Shown here one piece after another: positions 1,455-24,629 of a DNA stretch of 33,288 bases. This DNA is from Chloroflexota bacterium (GTDB lineage Bacteria > Chloroflexota > Limnocylindria > Limnocylindrales > CSP1-4). How positions within the stretch are numbered: position 1 is the stretch's first letter; each line of letters opens with the position of its first letter. The stretch spans positions 1-33,288 of the forward strand of contig JBDTVN010000003.1 in NCBI GenBank assembly GCA_040007155.1. Direction: 5' to 3'. Both the position numbers and the translations under genes were made by a program. A model generated the notes under the pieces. It ran no database searches and was not told the origin of the DNA. It saw only the letters and a program-made list of their open reading frames with translations.

Positions 1455-2081
1455 TCAGTCCGCCGGTGTGACGAGACGTACCGTTATGGCGAACCACGCG
1501 AAACCCAGCAGCGCGCCGCCGATAGCGTCGGTCGGCCAGTGGACGCCAAGGGCGACGCGCGCATAGCCCATCACGAGTCCAGCGGCCAGGCCGGCACCCA
1601 GTGCGAGGCGAAACCGCCAACCCACAGGCGCCAGGACCCAGGCGAGTGCCGCGGCCAGGGCGACGGCTCGGACGACGTGACCGCTCGGAAACGAGTACGA
1701 GTCGGGGCCAAAGAATTGCGCGGTCGCCGCCGTGTCGGGCCGTGGCCGCTCAATGACGATCTTGACCGCGAACGCAGCCAGGTCGCTGGCGAGACTAAGG
1801 CCGACCAGAAGCGCTGCCCGCGCACCACGGACCAGCCAGATCACGACCGCCACCACCGCTACGAGGACCGACCAGAAGGGCAGCTCGCCGAGCGTATTGA
1901 TCAACCGGAAGACGTCCCCGAATAGGTCCCCCTTGAGGGCGATGGCGGAGACGACGCCCGGCTCCCATGGTGCCGAAGTGTTGAGGCGCGCCCAGATCGC
2001 GAGAAGGACGAAGGGCAGCAGCGTGAGAACAGCCAGCAACAACAGGTTGCGACGCTCGAGGCGCGGCGCGGGCGCGATCAA
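1455..2081 (-). CDS. PAP2-family membrane phosphatase
   Basis: KIVIERPRP, SFPSGH and ARVALGVHWPTD (C1/C2/C3 motifs). TTG start at 2081 overlaps the upstream stop codon. Confidence 0.9.
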   Translation of the reverse strand: MIAPAPRLERRNLLLLAVLTLLPFVLLAIWARLNTSAPWEPGVVSAIALKGDLFGDVFRLINTLGELPFWSVLVAVVAVVIWLVRGARAALLVGLSLASDLAAFAVKIVIERPRPDTAATAQFFGPDSYSFPSGHVVRAVALAAALAWVLAPVGWRFRLALGAGLAAGLVMGYARVALGVHWPTDAIGGALLGFAWFAITVRLVTPAD

Positions 2082-3058
2082 ACGCCTATCGGATGCCAGA
2101 CGGTCTTCATCTCCAGGAATGCGGCGATCCATTCGGGCCTCTGCGCGCGGCGGTCATCGAGCCAATCGAAACGCTCGTCGACGCCGCGCGGCGGACGCGC
2201 CAGTCGCTTGACGTTCTCTATTGCAGCTTCCTCAACAGACGTGCGCATGTCGCGCGGTACGCCCCACGTGTCGATGGCGTTGACGTCCATGTGCGAGGCC
2301 AGAATCGGCACCAGCTCGCGCCGCAGACCGGTCAGGATGTTGATCACGCCGCCCGGCACATCCGATGTCGCGAGCACCTCGCCGAGCGTCACTGCGGGGA
2401 GCGGCCGCGTCTCGCTGGCGATCACGACAACCACGTTGCCACCGACGACCGCCGGGGCGACGCGCGACACGAGCCCGAGCAGCGACGACGTTTCGGGGGC
2501 GACGACGCCCACGATGCCGGTCGCTTCGGGAAACGTGAAGTTGAAGTAGGGCGCGCCGACAGGGTTAACCGTGCCCAGCATCTGGCTGATCTTGTCGGCC
2601 CAGCCCGCGTACCAGACCCAGCGATCAATCGCGCGATCGACAACCGTCTCGGCGTCTGCGGCGCTCAACCCCTCGGCCGCGGCGACCTCGTCGACGAACT
2701 GCGCGCGGCGGCCCTCCATCAACTCGGCCACCCGGTACAGGACCTGGCCGCGGTTCATGGCGGTCTTGCCGGACCATCCCGCAAACTGTCCACGCGCGGT
2801 GCGGATGGCGTCGCGCAGATCCTTCTTGGACGAGCGGACGGCGTTGGCAAGCGGCGTGCCGTCAGGCCCGCGAACGACATATGAGCGGCCCGACTCCGAG
2901 CGCGGAAACGCTCCGCCTACGTACAGCTTGTAGGTCTTGCGCACCGCGATGCGTGTTGAAGGCGCTGGCACGGCGACCGGCGCGGTCTTTGCAACTGCAC
3001 GTGTGGAAGCTGGTTTGCGGGTGGTCGGTGCCTTTGTGGTCGTCTTCTTCGTCGCCAT
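2078..3058 (-). CDS. Aldehyde dehydrogenase family, non-catalytic Rossmann-only subunit (ALDH16 C-terminal-half-like)
   Basis: KTYKLYVGGAFPRSESGR, WYAGWADK, PGGVINILTG, ends EMKTVWHPIGV. Lacks ELGGK and the catalytic Cys domain. Confidence 0.85.
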   Translation of the reverse strand: MATKKTTTKAPTTRKPASTRAVAKTAPVAVPAPSTRIAVRKTYKLYVGGAFPRSESGRSYVVRGPDGTPLANAVRSSKKDLRDAIRTARGQFAGWSGKTAMNRGQVLYRVAELMEGRRAQFVDEVAAAEGLSAADAETVVDRAIDRWVWYAGWADKISQMLGTVNPVGAPYFNFTFPEATGIVGVVAPETSSLLGLVSRVAPAVVGGNVVVVIASETRPLPAVTLGEVLATSDVPGGVINILTGLRRELVPILASHMDVNAIDTWGVPRDMRTSVEEAAIENVKRLARPPRGVDERFDWLDDRRAQRPEWIAAFLEMKTVWHPIGV

Positions 3059-4617
3059 CAGTGGCCGCTGTCCATGTAAGCGAGCAAACCGGGCAAACCG
3101 CCCTCGCGGCCGTAGCCGGACTCCTTGTAGCCGCCGAACGGCGAGGTCGGATCGAACCGGTTGAAGGTGTTCGCCCAGACGACGCCGGCGCGCAACTTAC
3201 TGACCATGCTCAAGATGCGGCTGCCCTTCTCGGTCCAGACACCGGCTGAGAGGCCATACGCGGTGTTGTTGGCTTTCTCGACCGCCTCTGCGGGCGTGCG
3301 GAAAGTCAGCACGGACAAGACCGGGCCGAAGATCTCCTCCTGGGCGATGCGGCTCGACTGGGCGACGTTGGTGAAGAGCGTGGGCCGGAAGAACCAACCA
3401 CGCGATGGCAGCTCGCATGCTGGCTGGTACATGTCCGCGCCTTCGGCGATACCCGCCTCGACGAGCTCCTCGATCTTGGCCAGCTGCGCGGCGTTGTTGA
3501 TGGCGCCAACGTCGGTGTTCTTGTCGAGCGGATCGCCCACTCGGAGCGTGCTCAGGCGGTCCTTGAGGCGCTCGATGAAGGGCCCGACGATCGACTCCTG
3601 CACGAATAACCGACTACCCGCACAGCAGACCTCGCCCTGGTTGAAATAGATGCCGTTGATAACGCCCTCGATCGCCTGGTCCATTGGCGCGTCGTCGAAG
3701 ATGATGTTCGCGGCCTTGCCGCCGAGCTCCAGGGTCAACGCCTTGTTGGTGCCAGCGAGCGCGCGGCCAATCTCCTTGCCGACCATCGTGGATCCTGTGA
3801 ACGCGACCTTGTCGACGTCAGGATGCTTGACGAGCGCGAGGCCGATCTCGCCGGGGCCGGTGATGATGTTGACCACGCCCGGCGGCAAGTCGGCCTGGCG
3901 GCACACGTCGGCGAAGAAGAGCGCGCTCATTGGCGTGGAACTGGCCGGCTTGAGGACGACCGTGTTGCCTGCCGCAAGGGCGGGCGCGATCTTCCAGGCG
4001 AGCATCAACAGCGGGAAGTTCCACGGAATGACCTGCGCACAGACGCCGAGCGGCTGCGGATCGCGGTTGGGGAATGCGTACTCGAGCTTGTCCGCCCAGC
4101 CGGCGTAATACCAGAAGTGCGCCGCCGCGAGCGGCACGTCGACGTCGCGCGACTCCTTGATTGGCTTGCCGCCGTCGAGCGACTCGAGCACGGCGAACTC
4201 GCGACTGCGCTCCTGCAGGATGCGCGCGATACGGAAAAGGTACTTTGCGCGTTCGCGGCCGGGCAGCGTGCTCCAGTCGCGCCGGAAAGCCTTCCGCGCG
4301 GCGCCCACCGCCTGGTCGACGTCCTTAACGGTGGCGCGCGCGATCTCAGCGATCGGCTCCTCAGTCGCGGGATCGACGGTCGTGAACCATTGGCCGCCGC
4401 GCGGCGCAACTTCCTTGCCGCCGATGAACAGGCCGTAGCGGCTCTTCAGTTGAACGACATCGCGCGATTCGGGCGCGGGCGCGTACTCCCACGGGATGTG
4501 CTGGCCGTCGCCCAGGCTCCACGATGAGGGCGCAGGAGTGCCGCGCCCGACATCGGCTGACTTACCGCCTTCGATCAGCGCGCGCGTTGAGCTTGCGCCG
4601 GTCTTCCTTGTCGCCAC
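3058..4617 (-). CDS. Aldehyde dehydrogenase, catalytic subunit (probable acetaldehyde dehydrogenase, ALDH16-like)
   Basis: PWNFP, FTGST, LELGGK (catalytic Glu), GEVCCAG (catalytic Cys), EEIFGP, FGGYKESGYGREGG. Confidence 0.93.
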   Translation of the reverse strand: MATRKTGASSTRALIEGGKSADVGRGTPAPSSWSLGDGQHIPWEYAPAPESRDVVQLKSRYGLFIGGKEVAPRGGQWFTTVDPATEEPIAEIARATVKDVDQAVGAARKAFRRDWSTLPGRERAKYLFRIARILQERSREFAVLESLDGGKPIKESRDVDVPLAAAHFWYYAGWADKLEYAFPNRDPQPLGVCAQVIPWNFPLLMLAWKIAPALAAGNTVVLKPASSTPMSALFFADVCRQADLPPGVVNIITGPGEIGLALVKHPDVDKVAFTGSTMVGKEIGRALAGTNKALTLELGGKAANIIFDDAPMDQAIEGVINGIYFNQGEVCCAGSRLFVQESIVGPFIERLKDRLSTLRVGDPLDKNTDVGAINNAAQLAKIEELVEAGIAEGADMYQPACELPSRGWFFRPTLFTNVAQSSRIAQEEIFGPVLSVLTFRTPAEAVEKANNTAYGLSAGVWTEKGSRILSMVSKLRAGVVWANTFNRFDPTSPFGGYKESGYGREGGLPGLLAYMDSGH

Positions 4618-12596: not shown

Positions 12597-14747
12597 ATGA
12601 CCGCCGTTCGCCCTGAGCGCGACCAGGCGCCGACCGAGCGTGCCCCAAACCCTCGGACGGCCGGTTCAGGCCGCGCACGACGAGCGGCCGCCCAGTCGCG
12701 CATGCCGTACATCAACCGTGAGCTGTCGTGGCTTGAGTTCAACGATCGGGTGCTGCATGAGGCGATCGACGAGCGCAACCCACTGCTTGAGCGCGTGCGC
12801 TTCCTGGCGATCTTCGCCACGAACCTCGATGAGTTCTTCCAGGTCCGCGTCGCCGGGCTGAAGCAGCAGGTCGCGGCCGGTAGGTCGGCGCCCACGCCCG
12901 ACGGCATGAGTGCCGCGGACACGCTCGACGCGGTACGGACCCGTCTCCTGCCCATGGTGGCGCGCCACTCGGAGACGTACGCGCGCGTCCGTGACGAGCT
13001 CGCCGAAGAAGACATTCGCATCGTCAGCTATGCCGAACGCGAAGAGCGCCACCACGAGCTCCGGACGCGCTTCTTCGACGAGATTTTCCCCGTCCTCACG
13101 CCGCTCGCGGTCGATCCCGGCCACCCGTTCCCGTACATCAGTGACCTGTCGCTGTCACTCGCAGTGACCGTGCGCGACCCCAGCACTGGGGAGCGCCTGT
13201 TCGCGCGCATCAAGGTCCCGCCGATCTTGCCGCGGCTCATGGAAGTGGGCACGAACACCTACGTGCTGATTGAACAGGTCATCGCCGCGAACCTCGATGC
13301 GCTGTTCCCGGGCATGGAAATCGTCGAGCACCATCTATTCCGGGTGACGCGCAACGCTGATATCGCGCTCGAAGAAGAAGAGGCGCCCGACCTGCTCATG
13401 GCCATCGAAGAGGAGCTGCGCAAGCGGCGCTTCGGCAAGGTCGTGCGGCTCGAGATCGAACGCACCATGCCTCACGCCACGCGGCAATTGCTCATGCGCG
13501 GCCTGGGCATCGACGCCGCCGACGTATATGAGATTAGCGGCGTGCTCGATCTGACCGCGCTTGGCGCGATCGCTGAGCTCGATGTCCCGGACCTGCACCT
13601 GGCACCGTGGCAGCCGGTCATCCCGCCGCGCCTGGTGCCACCCGACCCCGATGACGAAATCGATGTTTTCGGCGCGGTCCGTGCCGGCGACCTCCTCGTA
13701 AATCATCCGTACGAGTCGTTCGTCGCATCAGTCCAGAGGTTCATCGAGCAGGCGGCCGAGGACCCTGACGTCCTCACCATCAAGCAGACGCTGTACCGCA
13801 CCAGCGGCGACTCGCCCATCGTGCGCGCGCTTATCCGCGCCGCCGAGGCGGGCAAGCAGGTCGTGGTCCTGGTCGAGATCAAGGCGCGCTTCGACGAGCA
13901 GGCGAACATCGTCTGGGCACGCGCGCTGGAACGCGCCGGGGCACACGTTTCGTACGGCCTGGTCGGGCTGAAGACGCACACCAAGGTCGCACTCGTGGTC
14001 CGGCGCGAGGGCCGCGGCCTGCGCCGCTACGTCCACATCGGTACGGGCAACTACAACTCCAAGACCGCGCGCGGCTATGTCGACCTGGGTCTGCTGACCG
14101 CCGACCCTGAGCTTGGTGCCGACGTGACCGAGCTCTTCAACCTGCTAACTGGCCACTCACGCCAGACGCGCTATCGCAAACTCATCGTTGCGCCGTCCGC
14201 CTTGCGCACCTGGCTGACCGACCTGATCGAGGCCGAGGCCGAGCGACAGCGGACGCACGGCGACGGGCGGATCGTCTTCAAGCTCAACGCGATGGTCGAT
14301 CCGGCCATCATCGCGACGTTGTACAAGGCCAGTCAGGCGGGCGTCTCGATCGACCTCATCGTCCGCGGCATGTGCGCCGTGCGGCCGGGCGTCGACGGCT
14401 TTTCCGAGACGGTGCGAGTGCGCTCGGTCGTCGGGCCGCTCCTGGAGCACTCGCGCATCTTTGTCTTCGGCCGCGGCGAGCGCGAAAAGTTTTTCATTGG
14501 CTCGGCTGACGTGATGGAGCGCAACCTCGACCGGCGCGTCGAGGCGATCACGCCGATCACGGACGCCGAAAGCCAGGCGCGCCTGCGCCAGATCATCGAG
14601 GTCATGCTCAGCGACGACCGCCGGGCGTGGCAGCTCGATTCGAATGACACATGGCGGCGCGTAGAGGACGTGCGTCAAGCGCCGGGTCAGCGCGACACGT
14701 TCGAAATGCTGATGGCGCTCGCCCAGGCATCCGCCGGCGCGGGGTGA
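12597..14747 (+). CDS. ppk1: Polyphosphate kinase 1
   Basis: YINRELSWLEFNDRVL, NLDEFFQVRVAGL, HPFP, HPYESF, IKQTLYRT, EIKARFDE, GTGNYN, LEHSRI, RNLDRRVE. Confidence 0.97.
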   Translation: MTAVRPERDQAPTERAPNPRTAGSGRARRAAAQSRMPYINRELSWLEFNDRVLHEAIDERNPLLERVRFLAIFATNLDEFFQVRVAGLKQQVAAGRSAPTPDGMSAADTLDAVRTRLLPMVARHSETYARVRDELAEEDIRIVSYAEREERHHELRTRFFDEIFPVLTPLAVDPGHPFPYISDLSLSLAVTVRDPSTGERLFARIKVPPILPRLMEVGTNTYVLIEQVIAANLDALFPGMEIVEHHLFRVTRNADIALEEEEAPDLLMAIEEELRKRRFGKVVRLEIERTMPHATRQLLMRGLGIDAADVYEISGVLDLTALGAIAELDVPDLHLAPWQPVIPPRLVPPDPDDEIDVFGAVRAGDLLVNHPYESFVASVQRFIEQAAEDPDVLTIKQTLYRTSGDSPIVRALIRAAEAGKQVVVLVEIKARFDEQANIVWARALERAGAHVSYGLVGLKTHTKVALVVRREGRGLRRYVHIGTGNYNSKTARGYVDLGLLTADPELGADVTELFNLLTGHSRQTRYRKLIVAPSALRTWLTDLIEAEAERQRTHGDGRIVFKLNAMVDPAIIATLYKASQAGVSIDLIVRGMCAVRPGVDGFSETVRVRSVVGPLLEHSRIFVFGRGEREKFFIGSADVMERNLDRRVEAITPITDAESQARLRQIIEVMLSDDRRAWQLDSNDTWRRVEDVRQAPGQRDTFEMLMALAQASAGAG

Positions 14748-16210
14748 GCGAGGAGCTCGAGCTCAAATTTATCGTCGAGGACCCGGCTGCGGCCCGGGCG
14801 TGGATGGACCACCGACTGGGCATTTCCGAGCCCTGGCAGACGATCCAGATCATCGATCGGTACTTCGATACGGCCGACCTCGCGCTTTCTGTCGCTGGCT
14901 ACGGCGCCCGACTTCGCCAGATGGGCCGGCAGACGCTGATCACCGTCAAGTCCGACATCGAGGTGGTCGGCGGGCTGCACCGACGCGAGGAACTCGAGGC
15001 GCCTGCCGCGCGAGCACTTGATCCGGTGAAGTGGCCGGAAAGCGACGCACGGACCCGCGTTCTCGAAGTTGTGGGCGCACGGCGGCTGATCGAACGCTTC
15101 CGCGTTGAGCAGGAGCGCCATGAAGTTGAGGCCGCCGTAGACGGGGCGCTGGTCGTGGCCTCGATGGACGAAGGCGACGTATGGGCAGCGGGCCGCCTGG
15201 TCGGGTCGCTCAGGCAGCTCGAGATCGAGTTGCGCAGTGGCGATGAGACCGTGTTGCGCGGCTTGGCCGACGAGATCACGGCCGCGAGCATCGGCGTCGC
15301 TGAGCCGCGCTCCAAGCTGGCCATCGCCCTCTCGATGGTCGCGGCCGCAGAGAAGATCCAGCCGACCGACACGATGGCTGCCGCCGGTCGCCTCGTTTTG
15401 CGCCGCCAGCTGCTGCGCATGCTCGAGCGTGAGTCAGCGGCGCGCACGGGCGATCCCCTGGCGATCAAGCAGATGCGCGTGGCGACGCGGCGCATGCGCG
15501 CTGCGTGGCGGGTCTTTGGCGATGCGTACCAGAAGCGCTCCCGACGTAGGTACGTCGCCGAGCTGCGCCGCGTGGCCGATGCCCTGGGCGAGGTGCGCGA
15601 CCTGGACGTGCTGCTCGCTGGTCTTCCGGACGATGAGGCGCTGGCGCCGCTCGCCGAAGCGTGGCGCCAACGCCGCGCACTTGCGCACGCGCGGTTGATG
15701 ACGCTTCTGTACGACTCGACGTATGAGAAGTTCGTCGCGGATTACCTGGACTTCACCTCTGCTCCTGGGGCCGGGCTAGATAACGGGGCCTCACCAACGA
15801 CGATGGCGCAAGCCGCCACGACGGAGCTGATCGGTGGCGCAGATGCGATCCGCGCCGCCGCTACCGCTGTGTTCGCGAACGGCGACGATGAGGCATGGCA
15901 CACGCTGCGCATTGGCTCGCGCCGCCTGCGCTACTCAGTCGAGCAGCTGCGCGAACAGATCGGCGAAAGCGCCGCCACGGCCGCCATCGCCAATCTGGTG
16001 CGCATCCAGGATTGCCTGGGCGCGATGAACGATGCGGCCGTTGCCGCCAACGAGGCTGAGTCGTGGCTCGCCGCCCATCCGCATGCGCGGCTCACGACAA
16101 AAGGCGCGATCAGGTCGTACGTGACCGCGCAGCACGATGCGATCACGCGCCTACGCGGGGAATTCGCGCCCATCTGGCAGGAAGCGTCGGGTCTGTTTAC
16201 AGAGCGTTAA
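14744..16210 (+). CDS. CYTH + CHAD domain protein (polyphosphate-associated)
   Basis: N-terminal ELELKF (ExExK) and DRYFDT; C-terminal MRVATRRMR, LGEVRDLDV, HTLRIGSRRLRY, QDCLGAMND. GTGA overlap with ppk1. Confidence 0.9.
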   Translation: MSEELELKFIVEDPAAARAWMDHRLGISEPWQTIQIIDRYFDTADLALSVAGYGARLRQMGRQTLITVKSDIEVVGGLHRREELEAPAARALDPVKWPESDARTRVLEVVGARRLIERFRVEQERHEVEAAVDGALVVASMDEGDVWAAGRLVGSLRQLEIELRSGDETVLRGLADEITAASIGVAEPRSKLAIALSMVAAAEKIQPTDTMAAAGRLVLRRQLLRMLERESAARTGDPLAIKQMRVATRRMRAAWRVFGDAYQKRSRRRYVAELRRVADALGEVRDLDVLLAGLPDDEALAPLAEAWRQRRALAHARLMTLLYDSTYEKFVADYLDFTSAPGAGLDNGASPTTMAQAATTELIGGADAIRAAATAVFANGDDEAWHTLRIGSRRLRYSVEQLREQIGESAATAAIANLVRIQDCLGAMNDAAVAANEAESWLAAHPHARLTTKGAIRSYVTAQHDAITRLRGEFAPIWQEASGLFTER

Positions 16211-16234
16211 CAGTTAACCAATCGGACGTTCACG
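16195..16234 (+). promoter_or_regulatory. Pho box upstream of pstS
   Basis: GTTTACA (16195), GTTAACA (16206) and GTTCACG (16228) fall in an 11-bp phase, resembling Streptomyces GTTCACC and Bacillus TT(A/T/C)ACA PhoP repeats. Confidence 0.7.
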
Positions 16235-16287
16235 CTTGGCAGGAAAACTCGTTGCTATTGGGGAAGTAGCAAGGAGATCCACACAAG

Positions 16288-17199
16288 TTGAAGTCCACAA
16301 CAAAGTTGTTCGCCGTGTCCGCGCTGGCCGCGGCCGCCCTGGTCACGGGCTGCGCCGGCGGTAGCAGTGCCACGCCGACTCCCGCACCGTCTGGCCCCGC
16401 GGGCGCAGGCGTGACCAACCTCAGCACGGCTGATGCCATCGCCCTCTGGACCGGCGCCAAGACCAATTGGAGCGACTTCGGCGGTCCAGCCGAGGATATC
16501 GTCCTTATCATCCGCCCCGACTCGTCGGGCACGCGGGCGACATTCCGCAAGATTGTCCTGGGTGGCGCCACGGAAGCGTCCGGCCAGGCACTGACCGAGG
16601 ACTCGAACGGCGCCGTCACCACGGCCATTCAGAGCACCCCTGGCTCGACCAGCGTCATTGGCTTCGCCTACTACCAGTCGAACAAGGCCGATCTGAATGC
16701 TCTCCAGCTTGATGGCATTGATGCGACCGTCGAGAACATGGTAAGCGGCACATACAAGCTGAATGCGATCGGTCACATGTACACCCTCGGTGAGGCGACC
16801 GGCCTGACCAAGGCGTTCCTCGACTTCATCATGGGCAAGCACGTTCAGACCGAGCTGCTGCCGAGCAAGTTCTATGCCCCGGCCGTGACCAGCCCGGTCG
16901 ATGCCGCGCCCGCGTGCGTCGATGGCACCATCACGATCGGTGGCTCGACTGCGCTCCAGCCACTCGTCGAGGCGGCGCGTGACGAGTACCAGGCGGCATG
17001 TCCTAACTCGCACGTCGATGTCCAGGGTGGCGGTTCCGGCACTGGCCTGTCGCAGGTCGCCGCGGGCGCTTTCCAGATCGGCGACTCGGACGTTTCAGCC
17101 GGCGAGAAGCTCGAGACACCGGTTGCAGCCACGCTGGTCGATCACCAGGTCGCCAAGCAGGGCTGGGTGATGGTCACCAACATCGACGTCGGGCCCTAG
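16288..17199 (+). CDS. pstS: Phosphate-binding lipoprotein PstS, circularly permuted
   Basis: AAGGAG SD, TTG start, LVTGC lipobox. Contains TNW..GG, RPDSSGTRATF, GSTALQPL, GGGSGTG and IGDSD, but in permuted order. Confidence 0.92.
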   Translation: MKSTTKLFAVSALAAAALVTGCAGGSSATPTPAPSGPAGAGVTNLSTADAIALWTGAKTNWSDFGGPAEDIVLIIRPDSSGTRATFRKIVLGGATEASGQALTEDSNGAVTTAIQSTPGSTSVIGFAYYQSNKADLNALQLDGIDATVENMVSGTYKLNAIGHMYTLGEATGLTKAFLDFIMGKHVQTELLPSKFYAPAVTSPVDAAPACVDGTITIGGSTALQPLVEAARDEYQAACPNSHVDVQGGGSGTGLSQVAAGAFQIGDSDVSAGEKLETPVAATLVDHQVAKQGWVMVTNIDVGP

Positions 17200-17255
17200 G
17201 ACAACCAGCAGTAACCTACTGCGGCGTCCCCGGACGTTCGCAGGTTCCTCCCCCG

Positions 17256-17290
17256 CGAGCCCCGGGCCGGACTACCGGCCCGGGTTCTCG
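17256..17290 (+). terminator. Stable stem-loop between pstS and pstC
   Basis: Perfect 10-bp stem CCCGGGCCGG-acta-CCGGCCCGGG (17261-17284); no long U-tract. Confidence 0.6.
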
Positions 17291-17309
17291 TTAGCCAGCA
17301 GGATGACTC

Positions 17310-18242
17310 GTGACTTCTTTTGCCGGTAACTCGCCCGCTCAGGTGCGGCGCGGCCTGTCGTGGGCTGAGCGGATCGATCTGCCGCGGCGGCTGACCTTCG
17401 CCGCGGCCGCAATCGTTGTCCTGCTCGTGGCCATCCTGCTCGGCTTCATTACCTGGAACGGCATCCAGGTCTTCCTGCATTCGCATATCCCGCTCGAGAA
17501 CCTGCTCAGCACGCGTTGGGAGCCGCTCGCCGATCCGCAGGCGTTTGGCATTTTGCCGTTCGTCGTCGGCACCGCGGGCGTGACGGTGCTTGCTGCATTG
17601 ATCGCAACCCCGCTGTCGGTCGGTCTGGCCATCTTCATGGCCGAGATCGCGCCCGACTGGGCACGGCGCATCGTGCAGCCGGCGATGGAAGTGTTCGTCG
17701 GTATTCCCAGCGTCGTGTGGGGCTGGCTGGGCATCACGATCCTGGTGCCGTTCCTGCGTCAGAACCTGGGCTGGGCGGGCTTCAAATTTGGCTTCAGCCT
17801 CTTCGCCGGGGCGTTGGTGCTGGCGATGATGATCCTGCCTACTGTCACCACGATCGCCTACGACACGATCAAGGCTGTGCCGGCGGAATTGCGTGGCGGC
17901 TCGCTCGCGCTGGGCACGACGCGCTGGCAGACCATCCGCCACGTCGTCCTGCCCGCGGCGCTGACGGGCCTGGTCACGGCCGTTGTGCTGGGCATGATGC
18001 GTGCTGCGGGTGAGGCCCTGGCGGTTCAGATGGTGATCGGCAACCGGCCGTTGATGCCCACTGGACTGGCTGATCCGATGACGACGCTGACGAGCCAGAT
18101 CACGCTCGACATGGGCAACACCGTTACGGGCGAACCGTGGAACGAGGCACTGTGGCTGATGGGCCTGGTGCTGCTGGCGATCTCGTTCGCCTTCGTGTCG
18201 CTCGTCAGATGGCTGACGCGCGGCCGGGAGATCGGCGCATGA
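17310..18242 (+). CDS. pstC: Phosphate ABC transporter permease PstC
   Basis: FGILPFVVGT, GIPSVVWG, EAA-loop SLALGTTRWQTI, RAAGEALAV. Confidence 0.95.
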   Translation: MTSFAGNSPAQVRRGLSWAERIDLPRRLTFAAAAIVVLLVAILLGFITWNGIQVFLHSHIPLENLLSTRWEPLADPQAFGILPFVVGTAGVTVLAALIATPLSVGLAIFMAEIAPDWARRIVQPAMEVFVGIPSVVWGWLGITILVPFLRQNLGWAGFKFGFSLFAGALVLAMMILPTVTTIAYDTIKAVPAELRGGSLALGTTRWQTIRHVVLPAALTGLVTAVVLGMMRAAGEALAVQMVIGNRPLMPTGLADPMTTLTSQITLDMGNTVTGEPWNEALWLMGLVLLAISFAFVSLVRWLTRGREIGA

Positions 18243-19144
18243 CATCGCGTATTGGCCGCTCTTTGCTCGCGGATCGCATCGCGACGATCATCCTGTGGTC
18301 GATCGCCGTGTTCGTGGTCGGGATCCTGGGCGCGATCATCATCCATTTCCTGCTCGCCTCCGTGGGCACACTGTCGCTCGACTTCCTGACTTCGGACCCC
18401 AGCCGCAGTGAGGTGGGCGGCGTCGGCCCGGTCCTGTGGAATTCCTTCTACATCCTCGTGCTGACCATGCTCATCACCGTGCCGCTCGGCCTGGTCGGCG
18501 GCATCTACATGGCTGAGTACGCCGGGCCGGGCCGCCTGGCCAACATCATTCGCCTCTCACAGGAGCTGATCAGCTCGGTGCCGTCCATCGTGGTCGGCCT
18601 GTTCGGTCTCGCTTTCTTCGTGGTCGCCTTTCACTGGAACTTCAGCGCGCTGTCGGGCGCGTTAGCGCTCGCGGTGTTCAACCTGCCGCTGATGACCCGA
18701 CTGTCGGAGCAGGCGCTGCGCGCCGTGCCGAGCGGTGAGCGCGACGCCAGTCTCGCCCTTGGCGCCACGCGTTGGCAGACCATCCGCAACGTCGTGCTGC
18801 CGCTGGCCATCCCGGGCATCGTTACTGGCATTGTCCTTACGTCCGGGCGCATCTTCGGCGAGGCCGCAGCGCTCATCTTCACGGCCGGGCTGTCGACGCC
18901 GTCGCACTACGACTTCGCCAACCTCAACCTGGCCGACCCAGCGTCGCCCTGGAGTCCGTTCCATTCAGCGACAACGCTGTCGGTCTACATCTGGAAACTC
19001 AACTCAGAGGGTCTGGGCGACTTCGTGCGCCAGATCGCGGATTCTTCGTCGGCGATCCTCGTCATCGCCGTGCTCGTCTTCAACCTTGGCGCTCGGGGCC
19101 TGGGCCGCGTGCTCCAGCGACGCGTATCAGGGGCCTCGAGCTAG
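18239..19144 (+). CDS. pstA: Phosphate ABC transporter permease PstA
   Basis: IYMAEYA, SVPSIVVGLFG, SLALGATRWQTI, GRIFGEAAALIFTAG. ATGA overlap with pstC. Confidence 0.95.
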   Translation: MTSRIGRSLLADRIATIILWSIAVFVVGILGAIIIHFLLASVGTLSLDFLTSDPSRSEVGGVGPVLWNSFYILVLTMLITVPLGLVGGIYMAEYAGPGRLANIIRLSQELISSVPSIVVGLFGLAFFVVAFHWNFSALSGALALAVFNLPLMTRLSEQALRAVPSGERDASLALGATRWQTIRNVVLPLAIPGIVTGIVLTSGRIFGEAAALIFTAGLSTPSHYDFANLNLADPASPWSPFHSATTLSVYIWKLNSEGLGDFVRQIADSSSAILVIAVLVFNLGARGLGRVLQRRVSGASS

Positions 19145-19987
19145 ATGTCCACAATCGAACGGCCGATGATCCGCATCGCAGTGGAACCCAGCCGGACGCA
19201 GCCGGGCGACGAGACGGAAACGAAGATCGCGCTGCGCGATTTGAACGTGTACTACGGCACCAAGCGCGCCGTGCGCGACGTGAACCTCGACATCCCCCAG
19301 AACGCAGTGACCGCATTCATCGGGCCGTCGGGCTGTGGCAAGACGAGCATTCTGCGCTGCATCAACCGCATGAACGATCTCATCCCGGTTGCCCGCGTCG
19401 AGGGCCAGATCCTGATGGACGGCGCTGACCTTAACGGCCGCGACGTGGTCCCGGCCGACGTGCGCCGGCGCGTGGGCCTCGTGTTCCAGCGACCCAACCC
19501 ATTCCCGATGACGATCTACGACAACGTCGCGTACGGCCCGCGTCGCCAGGGAACCAAGAACAAGCAACAGCTCGATGAGATCGTCGAGGACTCGCTCAAG
19601 CGCGCCGCGTTGTGGGACGAGATCAAGGACGACTTTCGACGGAAGTCAGCGCTCGCGCTCTCGGGTGGCCAGCAGCAGCGGGTGTGCATCGCGCGGGCGT
19701 TGGCGACTCAGCCCGATGTATTGCTGATGGACGAGCCGGCATCTGCGCTCGACCCTGTCTCGACGCTGCGCATCGAGGAGCTGATCGACGATCTGCGCCA
19801 GCGCTACACGATCGTCATCGTGACCCACAACATGCAACAGGCATCGCGCGTAAGCCAGCGCACGGCGTTCTTCAACATGGGTGATGACCGTGCCGGATAC
19901 CTGGTCGAGATCGGCGACACCAGGACGATCTTCACCAACCCGCGCGAGCGACTGACCGAGGACTACATCTCAGGTCGCTTCGGCTAG
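19145..19987 (+). CDS. pstB: Phosphate ABC transporter ATPase PstB
   Basis: [46 protein letters not shown]. Confidence 0.97.
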
Positions 19988-20004: not shown

Positions 20005-20760
20005 ATGGACGAGGAGATTCGAATCACCGCCGACGCGGCGGAAGCGGACGGTTTTGCACCCGGTCAACCACAGACGACCCCTGCTTTCCGGATACCTGCC
20101 CAGCACCAGCGCGAGACGCTCGATCGCGAGATGAGCGAGATCAAGGACGAGGTGCTGCGCATGGGCAGCCTGGTCGCGGCCCAGATTGGCGTCGCCATCG
20201 AGGCGCTGCTCGAGCACGACGCCGAAAAGGCAACCGCGGCGATCGTGGGTGACGGGCGCATCAATGAGGCGCAGCGTCACGTTGCTACGCTCATCGTCAC
20301 AGCCATTGCCACCCAGGCTCCGGTCGCGCGCGATCTGCGATTTCTGCTCGCCCTCGATCACGTCAACTACGAGCTTGAGCGCATGGGCGATCATGCGGCG
20401 TCAGTCGCTAAGCAGGCGCGCAAACTCGCGCCGCACGCGCCGCTCAAGAAATACGTCGGCCTGCCGCGTATGGGCGAGCTCGCCGCCGAGCAGGTACGCG
20501 GCGTGCTGCGCGCGCTGGTGGATCTCGACGTGGACGGGGCGCGTGACGTGGCCAAGCGCGATGATGAGATGGATGCGCTCTACCACGCAACCTTTGCCGA
20601 AGTGCTCGACCTGATGCGCGCCGATCCCGCGAACGTGGATCCGGGCACGCGCATCCTCTTTGCCGCGCACTACCTCGAGCGCATCGGCGACCGGGTGACC
20701 AATATTGCCGAGGACGTCGTCTTCCAGGCGACGGGCGATATCGAGGATCTCAACCCGTGA
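20005..20760 (+). CDS. phoU: Phosphate signalling protein PhoU
   Basis: QAPVARDLR, ELERMGDHA, LERIGDRVTNIAE; GGAGG SD. Confidence 0.95.
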   Translation: MDEEIRITADAAEADGFAPGQPQTTPAFRIPAQHQRETLDREMSEIKDEVLRMGSLVAAQIGVAIEALLEHDAEKATAAIVGDGRINEAQRHVATLIVTAIATQAPVARDLRFLLALDHVNYELERMGDHAASVAKQARKLAPHAPLKKYVGLPRMGELAAEQVRGVLRALVDLDVDGARDVAKRDDEMDALYHATFAEVLDLMRADPANVDPGTRILFAAHYLERIGDRVTNIAEDVVFQATGDIEDLNP

Positions 20761-21197
20761 ATATGGCGGCGCCAGCCGCGCGGCAGAGGGTGCTGTTCCT
20801 GTGCGTCCACAACAGCGCGCGCTCGCAAATGGCCGAGGGGCTCTTGCGCGCTCGCGCCGATGATCGATTCGAGGCTTTCAGCGCCGGCAACGTCGCGACC
20901 CAGCTGCGACCGCTCGCGATCACGGCGATGGCCGAGCTGGGCATCGACATCAGCGCCCAGCTCAGCAAGACGACGCTCGATCTGGGCGGCGCTCACTTCG
21001 ACTATGCCATCACGGTGTGCGACGACGCCAAGGAATCGTGCCCCTACTACGCCAATGCCGCGCACCAGGTGCACTGGGCATTTGATGACCCGGCGGCCGC
21101 GACCGGCGATGATGAGGAGCGGCTCGTCGTGTTCCGCCGCGTGCGGGACGAAATCGCTGCCCGCGTAGACGAATTCATAAGCGACGCGAACAGATAG
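20757..21197 (+). CDS. arsC: Arsenate reductase (LMW-PTP/thioredoxin-type)
   Basis: FLCVHNSARSQMAE P-loop, TVCDDAKESCP redox Cys pair, HWAFDDPA, FRRVRDEI. Confidence 0.88.
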   Translation: MNMAAPAARQRVLFLCVHNSARSQMAEGLLRARADDRFEAFSAGNVATQLRPLAITAMAELGIDISAQLSKTTLDLGGAHFDYAITVCDDAKESCPYYANAAHQVHWAFDDPAAATGDDEERLVVFRRVRDEIAARVDEFISDANR

Positions 21198-21216
21198 CGG
21201 GCGTAGGCTGGCGCCG

Positions 21217-21729
21217 ATGGACGGCCCCGAAGACATCACCGACTTTTCGCTCTTTCTGCTGCGCCACGCGCATGCCGGCAACGCAGCCACATGGACCGGC
21301 GAGGACGCGGAGCGCCCGCTGAGCCCGCGCGGCAAGGACCAGGCCAAGCGCCTCGGCAAGCTGCTCGCCGGCCGCGGCGTTGTCCCGGACACGATCGTCA
21401 GTAGCCCCAAGGTGCGCGCGCGCCAAACAGCCAATATCGTCGGCGACGCACTCGGCGTCGGCGTGGCCAACGACGATCGACTCGCCGAAGAGTTCGACCT
21501 CGACGCGCTCACCTCGATCATGGCCGGCGTGGGCGGGACGAGCCTCATGGTCGTCGGCCACGATCCTGATTTCAGCGAGATGCTGGCGACGCTCGTCGGC
21601 GCCGCCGAGATGCCGATGCGCAAGGGCGCGCTGGCGCGCATCGATGTTGTTCTGCCGCTCGGACCGGGCAGCGGGGTCCTGCGCTACCTCGTGCCGCCTG
21701 AATTGGTGCCCGACCCAGCCGACGACTAA
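21217..21729 (+). CDS. sixA: SixA-like histidine phosphatase
   Basis: LLRHAHA, RPLSPRG, SSPKVRARQTA, VVGHDP. Own TAGGCT -10 lies 7 nt upstream. Confidence 0.88.
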   Translation: MDGPEDITDFSLFLLRHAHAGNAATWTGEDAERPLSPRGKDQAKRLGKLLAGRGVVPDTIVSSPKVRARQTANIVGDALGVGVANDDRLAEEFDLDALTSIMAGVGGTSLMVVGHDPDFSEMLATLVGAAEMPMRKGALARIDVVLPLGPGSGVLRYLVPPELVPDPADD

Positions 21730-21842: not shown

Positions 21843-22472
21843 ATGCTCGAAGCCGCACTCGCCGGTGCTGTAGCCGGCTACGCGATCGCCATCCCCGTCG
21901 GCGCGATCGCGGTACTGATCATCCATACCGCGCTGACCAGCGGCTTCCGCGCGGGTTTCGCGGCGGGCGCCGGCACCGCAACGGCAGACGGCATCTACGC
22001 CACGATCGCTGCGTTTGCCGGGGCAGGCGTGGCAGCGTTCATCGGTCCGCTGGTGGCCCCCCTGCGGGTAGTCGGTGGCATCGTCCTCGTGCTGATCGGG
22101 GTCTACGGCCTCATGACGGCGTGGCAATCGCGCGACCGTGACACCGGCGCCCACATGCCCGCGCATCGGCCGCACGCCCGCACTTTTCTGACGGTGCTGG
22201 GACTCACGCTGCTCAACCCGGCGACCGTCATCTACTTCGGCGCGCTAACCGTTGGCCTGCCATTCCTGGGTGACCTCGGCGAACGATTGATGTTCGCCGG
22301 CGCGGCATTCGTCGCATCGCTTTCGTGGCAAACGCTCGTCGCTGGGTTTGGCGCCGTGTTGGGTCGCGGCGCCGGGCATCGGCTGCGCCTTCCGACCGCG
22401 ATCCTGGGCAACATGATCGTCATCGCTTTGGGACTGCTGGTCCTCGCTGGAACACTCGCGCCGCCGACCTAG
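21843..22472 (+). CDS. LysE-family translocator
   Basis: AIPVGAIAVLI, G.G.ATADGIYA, LTLLNPATVIYF; about six TM helices. Confidence 0.9.
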   Translation: MLEAALAGAVAGYAIAIPVGAIAVLIIHTALTSGFRAGFAAGAGTATADGIYATIAAFAGAGVAAFIGPLVAPLRVVGGIVLVLIGVYGLMTAWQSRDRDTGAHMPAHRPHARTFLTVLGLTLLNPATVIYFGALTVGLPFLGDLGERLMFAGAAFVASLSWQTLVAGFGAVLGRGAGHRLRLPTAILGNMIVIALGLLVLAGTLAPPT

Positions 22473-23503
22473 ATCGCGCGCGGTAACGCCAGGAAGAGTT
22501 GCGCGCCCTGACCGGGCTCGCTGCGCGCCCACATCCGACCACCGTGGCGCTCGGCGATGTGCCTGGCGATTGCCAGTCCGAGTCCTGTTCCGCCGCGGCC
22601 CCTGGAGCGGGCGCGATCACCTTTGTAGAAGCGCTCGAAGATTCGCTCGAGATCCGCGTGGTCTATTCCCTCGCCCTGATCTTTGACCTCGATGATGACT
22701 TCCGACTCGGTGGGGCGAGCGCTGACGACCACCTCTCCACCTGCAGGCGAGTAGCGGATGGCGTTATCAATCACGTTGACCAGAATCTGGCCGATGCGAG
22801 CCGCGTCGGCGGGCACGGTGCAGTCGCTTACGTCCGCGGGCGATTCGGCGCGCAAGCTGACCTGGTGGTGATCGGCGTAGCCGCGTAGACGCTCGAGCGT
22901 CTCGTCAACGACGTTGCCCATGTCCACGGGCGCGAGATTGAGGGGGGACTCGCCCGCCTCGATCGTCGCCAGGTCGAGCAGCTCGTCGACCATCTGAACG
23001 AGGCGCGACGTTTCCAGGTCGATGCGGCTGATGCCGTCAGCGACGCGCTGCGGCAGCTCCGTCCTCTTTGCCTCCAAGGTCAGCGATTCGGCAAGCAGAC
23101 GCATCGTCGTCAGGGGTGTGCGCAACTCGTGCGACAGGTTGTCGATGAATTCGCTGCGGATGCGGCGCAGCCGGCGCAACTCGGACGCGTCCTCGAGGGT
23201 CACCGTGACGTTGGACTCATGCGCTCTGCGCCAAACACGAACGTCGAGCGTGATCGCGCGATCGGTGGGTGGCGAGTAATCGGTTCGGGTCGGCTGGCCC
23301 GCGCGCGCGGCGCGGATCAGTTCCTCTAGCCGGTGATCGACGAATGCCTCGATCAGGCTCTTGCCAGGCAGGCTCTCCGGTCGCGCGCGGAGCAGCGCAT
23401 GGGCGGCCGCGTTGGCGGCGGCCACGCGATCGTTTTCGCCAATGGCGAGGATGCCCACGCCCAGCTCGTCCGCAAGGTCCGCCTGAGACGCCCAGTCAGT
23501 CAT
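22469..23503 (-). CDS. phoR: PhoR-like sensor histidine kinase (PAS-HisKA-HATPase, no TM)
   Basis: FIDNLSHELRTPLT, NVIDNAIRYS, DQGEGI, RIFERFYK, GTGLGLAI; pst context. Confidence 0.85.
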   Translation of the reverse strand: MTDWASQADLADELGVGILAIGENDRVAAANAAAHALLRARPESLPGKSLIEAFVDHRLEELIRAARAGQPTRTDYSPPTDRAITLDVRVWRRAHESNVTVTLEDASELRRLRRIRSEFIDNLSHELRTPLTTMRLLAESLTLEAKRTELPQRVADGISRIDLETSRLVQMVDELLDLATIEAGESPLNLAPVDMGNVVDETLERLRGYADHHQVSLRAESPADVSDCTVPADAARIGQILVNVIDNAIRYSPAGGEVVVSARPTESEVIIEVKDQGEGIDHADLERIFERFYKGDRARSRGRGGTGLGLAIARHIAERHGGRMWARSEPGQGAQLFLALPRAI

Positions 23504-24180
23504 CGCCGCAGAACGTAACCCACGCCGCGTACCGTCTGCAGCACTACCGGGTTCTGCGGATCGGCTTCGATCTGGCGCCGCAGCCAGTGGACATGCACAT
23601 CGACGGTACGCGTCTCGCCCGCAAAGTCGTAGCCCCAGACCTCGCTCAGCAGCTGTTCGCGACTGAATACCTGGCCCGGGTGACGCACGAAGAACGACAG
23701 CAGCTCGAATGCCTTGGGCTTGATCGGCCGGACCTCGGTCCCGTGCATGAGTCGGTGCCCGGCCAGATCGACCGTCACCTTGCCCACACGGACCTCCTCG
23801 TCAGAGTCGGTTGCCCGTTCGTGCCTGCGCAGCAGGCCGTTGATGCGGGCAAGCAGCTCGCGCAGGCTGAATGGCTTGGTCACGTAGTCGTCGGCGCCCA
23901 GCTCCAGCCCGACGACCTTGTCGACCTCGCTCGCGCGCGCGGTCAACATCACGATGGGTGTATCCGCCTCGCGCCGAATGATTCGCGTGAGCTCGATCCC
24001 CGATAGCTCGGGGATCATCACATCGAGCAGCACCAGGTCGGGCTTGTCGGCCCGGAATCGCTCAAGCGCCTGAGCGCCGTCGGTCGCCTGGACTACGCGA
24101 TACCCCTCCTGCTCGAGCTGATACGCCAACTCGGCGCGCAGCGGCTCCTCGTCCTCGACGACTAGAACCGTGCGGACCAT
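23500..24180 (-). CDS. phoB: PhoB/RegX3-like OmpR-family response regulator
   Basis: VVEDE, LDVMIP, GLELGADDYVTKPF, VWGYDF, TRTVDVHVHWLR. ATG at 24180. Confidence 0.85.
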   Translation of the reverse strand: MVRTVLVVEDEEPLRAELAYQLEQEGYRVVQATDGAQALERFRADKPDLVLLDVMIPELSGIELTRIIRREADTPIVMLTARASEVDKVVGLELGADDYVTKPFSLRELLARINGLLRRHERATDSDEEVRVGKVTVDLAGHRLMHGTEVRPIKPKAFELLSFFVRHPGQVFSREQLLSEVWGYDFAGETRTVDVHVHWLRRQIEADPQNPVVLQTVRGVGYVLRR

Positions 24181-24182
24181 TC

Positions 24183-24629
24183 CTACTCGCTGACCTCGCC
24201 CGACTTGACCTTGGCGATCAGCTCCTGGCGGGCCTTGCGCCGGAAGTCGCGGTTCTGGATCCAGTACTCGGTGAAGCTCGTGCACTCGTTGCGATCGTTG
24301 AACTTGCACACGTACATGTTGAAGTACTGGTCGCGCAGCGGACCGCCCGGCCCGTCGAAATAGTCGCTGCGACCGTGGGCGACGTACGTGTCGCCATCTA
24401 TGGCAAGCGGCTCGTATTCGGCGTCGACGGTCCCCTTGGCATCCTGATTCTCGAGCCAGTTCGCGACGACGGCGGCGCGCCCCACCACAATGTCGTCGCC
24501 AACGTCAGCCGGGTGGTACTTGTAGACGACGTCGTCCGCGAATAGCGCGGCGATCTTGTCGGGGTCGTATGTCTTCCAAGCCTCGACATACCCGTCGAGC
24601 CAGTTCTGGAAACCCTGCCGGTCCATCAT
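24183..24629 (-). CDS. SnoaL/NTF2-like protein
   Basis: WLDGYVEAW, ALFADDVVY, GRAAVVANW, CTSFTEYW; GAGG SD. Confidence 0.85.
   Translation of the reverse strand: MMDRQGFQNWLDGYVEAWKTYDPDKIAALFADDVVYKYHPADVGDDIVVGRAAVVANWLENQDAKGTVDAEYEPLAIDGDTYVAHGRSDYFDGPGGPLRDQYFNMYVCKFNDRNECTSFTEYWIQNRDFRRKARQELIAKVKSGEVSE

Follow-up and report, generated by a model that had tools for sequence, protein, structure and literature searches.

Sequence evidence for a naturally circularly permuted phosphate-binding lipoprotein, PstS, in the Limnocylindrales (Chloroflexota)

The pst locus and its pstS gene

The DNA analysed here, a stretch of 33,288 nucleotides (nt) referred to below as the window, comes from contig JBDTVN010000003.1 of a Chloroflexota genome of the order Limnocylindrales (GenBank assembly GCA_040007155.1) and carries on its forward strand the genes ppk, a CYTH-CHAD gene, pstS, pstC, pstA, pstB and phoU, in that order (Table 1). 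The gene with which we are concerned, pstS, is the open reading frame (ORF) 16288-17199 (+), the product of which is a lipoprotein of 303 amino acids (aa) read from a TTG start. As judged from sequence comparison, this ORF encodes a PstS in which the two blocks of the ordinary phosphate-binding protein are exchanged, with none lost or duplicated, as had been proposed in a preliminary description of the window, which called the protein a natural circular permutant.

Exchanged order of the two PstS blocks

Profile searches placed the C-terminal part of PstS ahead of the N-terminal part. Specifically, the Pfam family PF12849 (PBP_like_2), which was matched with a score of 96.2 bits against a cut-off of 27 and to which the protein hence belongs, had its profile positions 99-264 at nt 16396-16833 and its positions 3-103 at nt 16903-17196. 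In the NCBIfam profiles, aa 41-197 aligned with positions 132-293 of the 295 in TIGR02136 (E value 2e-51), and aa 215-284 matched positions 1-71 of TIGR00975. BLASTP against an ordinary PstS of the same genus (P0030, from locus L013) gave two gapless matches in swapped order, just as the preliminary description had predicted, with aa 41-198 on residues 142-299 (74% identity) and aa 210-301 on residues 49-140 (68% identity). A single subject residue, 141, lies between the two matches, in agreement with the claim that no block was lost or duplicated, and a weak third match (E 0.029) paired the signal peptides of the two proteins. Searches with phmmer against solved structures gave the same picture, aa 214-302 falling on residues 5-92 of 4ECF and aa 40-194 on its residues 91-240, with the same swapped pattern for the PstS 4EXL. 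Five comparisons (Pfam, NCBIfam, BLASTP, phmmer and the 10 further protein clusters described below) agree on the swapped order, which at the level of sequence is far beyond chance.

The landmarks of the protein had been located correctly throughout: V42 at nt 16411, FYAP at aa 195-198, a linker at aa 199-210, G213 at nt 16924 and a C-terminal end in DVGP directly followed by the stop codon. The linker itself is present, but the part of it between about P203 and C210 has the look of the segment that precedes the domain in ordinary PstS; the second half of the linker resembles the segment ahead of the conserved Cys in the ordinary relatives.

Recurrence of the permuted order

In a homologue search, of which the best 120 proteins were listed, 11 proteins besides that of the window aligned over 87-100% of the query. 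Ten of these 11 (P0003-P0007 and P0009-P0013), 65-91% identical to the query, have the layout found in the window; past a lipobox and tether the sequence opens with G-V-T/S-N-L/M, and its C-terminus reads D-V-G-P plus zero to two residues. The ten represent 10 clusters comprising 18 sequences from JGI, ENA and Logan, the longest contig having 295,546 bases. The other 108 of the best 120 each gave a single alignment over 52-56% of the query, and the six that were examined are ordinary PstS. Two more permuted members, both frameshifted (P0148 and P0255), were present among the cluster representatives. The eleventh full-length match, P0008 (428 aa; JGI contig, 1999 bases), follows the permuted PstS as far as the I-G motif and then continues as a protein of the TctC family (PF03401); judging from its sequence, it is probably a chimeric contig or a recent fusion.

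Contigs assembled from public sequencing runs (Logan) covered the joints of the permuted gene. Matches at 99-100% came from four runs, three of them belonging to a single study, which may be the source of the sample, and the fourth to a different study. Nucleotide 16410 was bridged by short contigs at 16304-16536 and 16227-16475, nt 16880-16924 by contigs at 16755-16942 and 16752-16914, and the stop codon (nt 17197) by contigs at 17090-17400 and 17177-17400, so that the check across the joints on which the preliminary description had made its claim depend came out in favour of the permuted order. No joints or loose ends were reported for the bridging contigs. Parts of 16100-17400 were without contig cover in single runs, to which we attach no meaning. 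The permuted order is genuine and inherited, and is not the product of misassembly.

Phylogeny and distribution

A tree was built on the two blocks, put into the ordinary order by a script; the initial 164 rows had been thinned to 79 by dropping ordinary sequences that shared more than 88% identity with one retained. In this tree the 11 permuted proteins form one clade (support 95 in the Shimodaira-Hasegawa-like approximate likelihood ratio test, SH-aLRT), which is sister (94) to a clade (99) containing the ordinary PstS of the same-genus genomes G012, G014, G214 and G325; the PstS of L013 is identical to that of G012. Because the permuted proteins are monophyletic, a single origin suffices, and the sequences indicate that the rearrangement occurred once, in the lineage sister to the ordinary PstS of the same genus.

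Among 32 genomes of the genus, the permuted gene was present in one only (G000), an intact ordinary gene in four and a broken ordinary gene in one, and the remaining 26 had no close homologue. Counted at E up to 1e-20, a close relative of the window-type PstS was missing from 25 of the 31 other genomes, so that this type of pst system is patchily distributed in the genus. Some of the genomes without a close homologue are 90-92% complete, and several contain only distant PstS-like matches (E about 1e-4 to 1e-6). The broken copy (L004, G009:C4:315383-316164) is an ordinary pstS split over several frames, with an internal stop, and is still followed by pstC and pstA. The recurrence that the preliminary description had hoped to see in related genomes was therefore found in the 10 metagenomic clusters but in none of the 31 other genomes of the genus.

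Wider searches yielded the ordinary form. Of 400 genomes sampled from the family, 66 contained a close homologue, and in no case was the match full-length and in line; among the 27 loci fetched, both blocks stood in ordinary order within one ORF in 26, and L107 had no single ORF holding both. Genome and metagenome scans covering at least 86 loci gave 83 ordinary genes and no permuted one, and three loci (L031, L083 and L085) with the C-type block only, at a contig end. When 1.84 billion cluster representatives were searched, one protein of about 300 aa (P0011) among the best 150 listed was matched in line over its full length. A feature search of the ESM Atlas, in which the window protein has no structure entry, returned clusters of ordinary PstS only.

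Predicted fold and chain path

AlphaFold2 was run with an input of 141 rows, comprising the permuted family and ordinary relatives split into their two blocks, each block being entered as a fragment row of its own. The result was a two-lobed model with a mean predicted local distance difference test (pLDDT) of 89.5 and a predicted template modelling score (pTM) of 0.81, confident for residues 41-303 including the linker, which is the kind of model that the preliminary description had called for. The modelled chain ends in a strand of 15 residues (283-297). Alignment with VIA-align matched about 156-162 residues of ordinary PstS (4LAT, Z 17.9; 4EXL, Z 17.8; 4ECF, Z 17.7), with root-mean-square deviations (rmsd) of 1.9 for 4EXL and 1.7 for 4ECF, model residues 41-201 lying on chain residues 119-276 over 156 residues. 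As a control, the model of the ordinary P0030 (also pLDDT 89.5) aligned with 4EXL over 244 residues (Z 30.6). In these models, compared with sequential aligners that are not permutation-aware, the permuted and ordinary forms agree block by block.

VIA-align also placed model residues 40-206 on residues 87-305 of E. coli PstS. The hinge of the latter lies near residue 76/77, and the new N-terminus would accordingly fall in the C-terminal lobe (C-lobe), about ten residues past the hinge, in line with the earlier proposal that the lipid anchor has moved to the other lobe. In the proposed path, the signal peptide, the lipobox with Cys22 and a tether of 18 residues come first. The chain would then enter the C-lobe just past the point at which the ordinary hinge strand enters it, pass through the ordinary C-terminal part to FYAP, cross a linker of about 11-15 residues joining the old termini, and continue into the core of the N-terminal lobe (N-lobe) with its GSTA, GGGSGTG and SD motifs; the long hinge strand would come last, returning to the C-lobe beside the new N-terminus. 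With fold and cleft predicted to be unchanged and the phosphate-binding motifs kept, phosphate would be held in the cleft and docking on PstC and PstA would resemble that of ordinary PstS, the tether leaving from the C-lobe side.

Rows 31-50 of the VIA-align results contained ordinary type II binding proteins that are unrelated to the window protein (OpuAC, AioX, ArrX and LysR-type domains), which align with the model in line over 165-212 residues (Z 9-11). The two lobes are alike, and a permutant cut near the lobe border presumably mimics an ordinary protein whose lobes have been exchanged; sequential structure alignments of the type II binding-protein fold can therefore mislead and should be used with caution.

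Docking on the transporter

In the PstSCAB complex of E. coli, PstS contacts PstA through its N-lobe and PstC through its C-lobe (PMC12976172), which would place the exit of the tether in the window protein on the PstC side. When a complex of PstC, PstA and residues 40-303 of the window protein was predicted, the score was 0.42 (runs 0.39-0.50), the best control reaching 0.02; the runs agreed in at least 90% of contacts, with partner pLDDT of at least 82. Benchmarking of this procedure gave a pass for 58 of 80 solved complexes and 2 of 110 mismatched pairs; both passing mismatches, and only 7 of the 80 complexes, had scores of 0.60 or less. The pass may reflect memory of, or likeness to, the solved E. 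coli PstSCAB, and the prediction hints at docking only weakly.

Conservation and selection

Eighty positions are invariant in all 11 permuted proteins and the same in at least 95% of 55 ordinary ones, including the motifs GSTA, GGGSGTG, IG.SD, R..SGTR and DSNG and both Cys residues. The part that these motif residues play in phosphate binding is known from E. coli PstS. Only three differences are fixed between the permuted and ordinary clades, one of them being the new C-terminal Pro. The lipobox Cys, with G or A before it, is likewise invariant in the 11 permuted proteins, and the homologues share the start position, their N-termini reading M/L/V-K-S-T. Mean identity is 0.78 in the permuted clade (minimum 0.68) and 0.82 in the sister clade (minimum 0.77). 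The ratio of nonsynonymous to synonymous substitution rates (dN/dS) between the window gene and ordinary genes of the genus lay at 0.25-0.33 in the C-type block and at 0.21-0.48 in the N-type block, compared with 0.17-0.30 and 0.10-0.21, respectively, among the ordinary genes; all of these figures are rough, with dS near saturation.

Two further ideas of the preliminary description found no footing here. An altered selectivity for phosphate or arsenate had been suggested, and nothing points to it, all motif residues of the family being unchanged. The two Cys residues had been regarded as a feature of the moved block, but C210 and C238 are equally conserved in the ordinary relatives and are therefore ancestral and not tied to the move.

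Conserved features around the rearranged gene

The locus of the ordinary gene L013 has the gene order of the window from ppk to phoU. The neighbouring products are 46-80% identical between the two loci, PstC, PstA, PstB and PhoU at 72-80% falling in the same range as the PstS blocks. The phased operator pattern found upstream of the permuted gene, in which unit 2 overlaps the stop codon of the gene before it, was also found 5' of ordinary pstS in L013, L002, L106, L014, L015 and L016. The segment between pstS and pstC is homologous to the corresponding spacer of L013 (local score 32), none of 300 shuffles reaching this score (mean 16.3, maximum 30). Since operator, spacer hairpin and gene order are all kept, the rearrangement is confined to the mature coding region, and the gene was rearranged in place. 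The reading frame, lipobox, Shine-Dalgarno site, Pho-box-like operator and pstCAB context had been described as intact, and all of them are indeed kept.

Table 1. Features of the pst locus in the window
Feature	Position (nt)	Strand	Remarks and basis
ppk	12597-14747	+	Order as in L013
CYTH-CHAD gene	14651-16210	+	Order as in L013
Pho-box-like operator, four 11-bp units	16194-16237	+	GTTnAC-type hexamer in phase in units 1, 2 and 4
Shine-Dalgarno-like site AAGGAG	16271-16276	+	11 nt 5' of TTG; read from the sequence
pstS: signal peptide and lipobox (aa 1-22; L-V-T-G-C22)	16288-16353	+	Sequence, family comparison
pstS: flexible tether, P/S/T/A/G-rich (aa 23-40)	16354-16407	+	Variable length in the family; pLDDT about 50
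pstS: block C-terminal in ordinary PstS (aa 41-198, GVTNLS to FYAP)	16408-16881	+	Profiles, BLASTP, phmmer, model
pstS: joint/linker, old C-terminus to old N-terminus (aa 199-209)	16882-16914	+	Homologue sequences; pLDDT about 96
pstS: block N-terminal in ordinary PstS (aa 210-303, C210 to DVGP) and stop	16915-17199	+	Profiles, BLASTP, phmmer
Conserved pstS-pstC spacer	17239-17291	+	G+C-rich hairpin 17261-17284
pstC	17310-18242	+	74-78% identical to pstC beside same-genus ordinary pstS
pstA	18239-19144	+	Start set at the ATG overlapping the pstC stop
pstB	19145-19987	+	ORF list, neighbour comparison
phoU	20005-20760	+	ORF list, neighbour comparison
Histidine kinase gene	22469-23503	-	Pfam domains
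OmpR-type response regulator gene	23500-24309	-	Pfam domains

The operator looks like a Pho box, to which a regulator of the PhoP/PhoB type would bind, and the kinase/regulator pair farther along may, by its position, be the candidate Pho sensors. No Rfam family matched in the window, and a sigma-70 scan gave no promoter-like site within 16100-17400.

Several other features of the region were observed. Directly after phoU come a gene for a low-molecular-weight phosphatase/ArsC-like protein (PF01451) and a histidine phosphatase gene (PF00300), at 20757-21729 of the window. In same-genus genomes with ordinary pstS (L013:5059-5800, L002 and L106), a gene of 231 aa lies between the CHAD gene and pstS; in its product a DNA-binding domain of the OmpR type (PF00486) is present but no receiver domain can be recognised, and the gene is absent from the window (16190-16290). 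The CHAD gene of the window and the 231-aa regulator gene share their last nine bases, which overlap the first operator repeat, suggesting that a deletion of about 0.75 kb is likely in the window. The best relatives of this regulator in the window's own genome are 25-37% identical. At the far left of the window, a 326-aa ORF (2078-3058, -) matches the first half only of an aldehyde dehydrogenase profile (11-232 of 461) directly downstream of a full-length aldehyde dehydrogenase gene (3058-4617, -), and may be a truncated duplicate of it.

Comparison with known binding proteins

The closest ordinary counterpart, P0030 at L013, shares with the window protein blocks that are 68-74% identical and gapless, the motifs and the Cys pair, as well as the lipoprotein signal, the operator and the pstCAB-phoU locus. 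The solved Gram-positive-type PstS (4EXL/4LAT and 4ECF) share the two-lobed fold, as seen in models. In contrast to ordinary PstS, however, the window protein has its blocks swapped, its old termini linked and its hinge strand last, and the tether, which enters the N-lobe in the ordinary protein, enters the C-lobe.

The preliminary description had implied that a permuted PstS was unique, which does not hold. The best structural match of the window model was PDB 4H1X, the protein SP_2084 of Streptococcus pneumoniae TIGR4 (Foldseek, E 1.8e-18 over 239 columns; VIA-align, Z 23.4 and rmsd 3.7 over 225 residues, model 69-303 on chain 35-268), and phmmer aligned the two in one stretch, query 71-298 on residues 11-237 of the 265 in the chain. 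Within this alignment, chain residues 54-208 run in line with aa 107-265 of the window protein, residues 54-152 being a C-terminal-type block that is followed by a linker and, at 153-208, by an N-terminal-type block with the G-S-T motif. 4H1X is therefore a permuted PstS too. A profile of the ordinary junction (hinge strand, helix and T-N-W) matched its residues 213-264, weakly (E 0.025), suggesting that the helix that opens the window protein (aa 44-64) closes 4H1X. Accordingly placed, 4H1X has no equivalent of aa 41-68 of the window protein at its start but has it at its end; it is 23% identical to the window protein and is cut about 25 residues further on. Since the two cuts lie about 25 residues apart, identity is only 23% and the window clade is nested among ordinary PstS, we consider the two permutations to be independent events. 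Three other queries did not return 4H1X: a 33-aa helix query gave two matches among solved chains, neither of them 4H1X; an 86-aa query of the ordinary junction did not match it at E up to 1; and it was not among the best 50 rows for the ordinary P0030 model (lowest Z 16.1), a control that by itself proves nothing.

In the literature searched, which did not extend to subscription journals and supplements, we found no report, among the papers listed, that SP_2084 or 4H1X is permuted; PMC4913102 contains no word starting with "permut", and searches for PstS or phosphate-binding protein together with circular permutation gave only biosensors, phage genomes and unrelated topics. SP_2084 is included in a table of pneumococcal lipoproteins in PMC11075461, where it is named pstS and SP_1400 pstS2. 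The naming in the PDB entry for 4H1X is the opposite, SP_2084 being called "pstS 2", and SP_2084 may belong to either of the two pneumococcal operons of PMC4913102, pst1 or pst2. PMC4913102 reports that deletion of nptA, the third gene for phosphate uptake in the pneumococcus, is tolerated when one of the two pst systems has been lost, but not when both have. Each Pst system alone therefore works and supports growth, which makes the pneumococcus a living precedent for a permuted PstS serving its transporter.

Natural permutants are also known among other binding proteins. In Treponema pallidum, the glucose-binding lipoprotein TpMglB-2 (Tp0684; "Type Ic / Cluster Bc") is a permutant of the Type I fold; "Type Ic" is the name put forward by its authors, who raised the question whether the altered topology might be adaptive for a tethered protein (PMC4990184). 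Like the window protein, it is a natural permutant and a tethered lipoprotein of an ABC transporter, binds its ligand and has homologues of the same topology; it differs in being a Type I (cluster B) sugar binder of unrelated sequence, with a poorly conserved permuted part and a fourth crossing of the hinge, whereas the blocks of the window protein are about 70% identical to those of ordinary PstS. The window protein is not Type Ic-like, being a PstS, of type II by profiles and structure matches; PstS belongs to cluster D (PMC12976172). In addition, permutation relations detected with CPSARST have been described among the glycine-betaine binders OpuAC and ProX, the molybdate-binding proteins and CysB (PMC2395249). 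These share with the window protein the type II fold class and a connectivity permuted between natural members, but they are old relations at the level of structure, with identities below 24% and no traceable event or sister form known.

Weighing of the alternatives

Taken together, the evidence makes it very probable that the gene encodes a working phosphate-binding lipoprotein of a pstSCAB-phoU system, circularly permuted, in Limnocylindrales (Chloroflexota). The preliminary description, too, had supposed a functional permutant. The motifs and the 80 positions are kept, the locus is conserved and the predicted fold is confident. Several points weigh on the other side. The gene starts with TTG, 11 nt past the Shine-Dalgarno-like site. 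The whole-protein score for TIGR02136, 175 bits, is below the cut-off of 206.6, a shortfall that arises because the match splits into two stretches and thus reflects permutation, not divergence. dN/dS is somewhat raised toward the window gene (0.21-0.48, against 0.10-0.30 among ordinary genes). The genome is 75% complete; searches of it gave no other PstS, and a second one may lie on a missing contig. Among the permuted genes, the comparison of loci covers that of the window. Folding, phosphate binding and docking are predictions. Finally, no duplication intermediate was found in the permuted lineage, nor any remnant of a second copy 3' of the stop codon (score 16, against a shuffle mean of 18.2).

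That two pstS copies or strains were assembled together into a chimeric contig is an idea suggested by the fragmented state of the metagenome-assembled genome (218 contigs) from which the window comes and by P0008, which is clearly a chimera with an unrelated TctC-type protein, but its chance is negligible in view of ten clusters from three data sources that share the order, start and end at 65-91% identity, of joints that are each bridged by independent short contigs without loose ends, and of an open frame in which both blocks are gapless against ordinary PstS. A decaying or idle gene, with uptake left to another binding protein or transporter, is very improbable. The incompleteness of the genome, the slightly raised dN/dS, the broken ordinary copy in genus member G009 and the lack of a close homologue in most other genomes of the genus, which shows that the genus can dispense with this PstS type, would be compatible with it; against it, the depth of the permuted clade equals that of the ordinary sister clade and yet every family motif and the 80 invariant positions are retained in it, the frame is intact in 11 diverged members, dN/dS stays well below 1, the gene still has its operator, Shine-Dalgarno site and lipobox and an intact pstCAB-phoU beside it, and no other PstS was found in the part of the genome available. 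Somewhat less remote, though still improbable, is a functional protein with a changed role, binding another oxyanion such as arsenate or phosphite or acting mainly as a sensor without delivery to PstCA. The tether leaves from the other lobe, so that docking geometry could differ (for the lobe contacts, see PMC12976172), and three residues are fixed differently in the permuted clade, but the motif residues are those of the ordinary relatives, the gene still heads pstCAB-phoU, PstC and PstA have diverged no more than the other neighbours, and the tether is long and flexible. We therefore retain the reading of a working permuted PstS.

Origin of the permutation

Two standard models for circular permutation, duplication followed by trimming and fission followed by fusion, are both accepted in the field (PMC3320104). 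For the window lineage we lean towards tandem duplication of the gene, followed by fusion in frame and loss of the outer part at either end, as the most likely route. Fused tandem PstS are common: 17 of the 150 best representatives are proteins of 511-878 aa with three or four matched stretches, P0126 (551 aa) and P0150 (537 aa) containing two full PstS modules and P0123 (799 aa) three, and P0162 being a cut piece of the order C-N-C. The tandem proteins seen (P0122 of 1060 aa, P0123, P0126, P0150 and 13 more) have two to four modules joined by short acidic or glycine-rich linkers, and one tandem-PstS cluster of the ESM Atlas is mostly from Chloroflexota. The window protein aligns with such fusions in line over 85-86% of its length, across the module joint, and they are the kind of intermediate that the duplication model needs, since trimming one would yield exactly the order of the window. 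They are, however, only 31-36% identical to it, belong to another PstS subfamily and have untrimmed modules; the route therefore exists, but these proteins are not the ancestors of the permuted clade. In addition, the linker reads like the old C-terminal tail followed by the ordinary segment that precedes the first Cys.

The same product could have arisen otherwise, by splitting of the gene and re-fusion in the other order or by cut-and-paste of one half. Such a course is the less likely one, although it draws on an accepted model (PMC3320104) and on the failure to see a duplicated or half-trimmed intermediate in the lineage or a remnant past the stop; the frequency of tandem fusions and the composition of the linker argue against it, and there are no split half-genes to cite, though none were searched for. 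A likeness of 6 nt to an ordinary "Q-stop", 11 nt past the new stop, was too short to count. Tandem duplication with trimming, the origin that the preliminary description had favoured, is thus plausible in that tandem PstS fusions exist, but an intermediate within the permuted lineage is missing.

Significance of the permuted PstS

The kind of permutation described here is not categorically new, the solved and widely cited 4H1X (SP_2084) having the same kind of topology, but it is an independent event with a new cut site. Natural permutations are usually ancient and known by comparison of structures. The case in the window is young and fully traceable, given blocks 68-74% identical to those of ordinary sisters in the same genus and an operator, signal, hairpin and partner genes that were left untouched. 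Because splitting of the match lowers the score below curated profile cut-offs, permuted binding proteins may be under-named by automatic annotation.

The permuted gene and its ordinary sister form a matched natural pair with which one could ask how a permutation arises inside an operon that is maybe the only high-affinity route of phosphate uptake in the cell, and whether the point at which the lipid tether is attached affects docking on the transporter. PstS has been permuted at least twice, and it is conceivable, though rather doubtful, that attachment of the tether to the C-lobe (PstC side) instead of the N-lobe (PstA side) was itself selected. Under this proposal, the side from which the tether leaves would alter how fast or how often PstS docks and releases; both cuts would lie in surface loops flanking the first helix of the C-lobe, and both permutants would be membrane-tethered lipoproteins of bacteria without an outer membrane. 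If the proposal is true, the Limnocylindrales clade and its ordinary sister, which share about 70% identity and occupy the same locus, would offer the first matched pair from nature in which such an effect could be measured.

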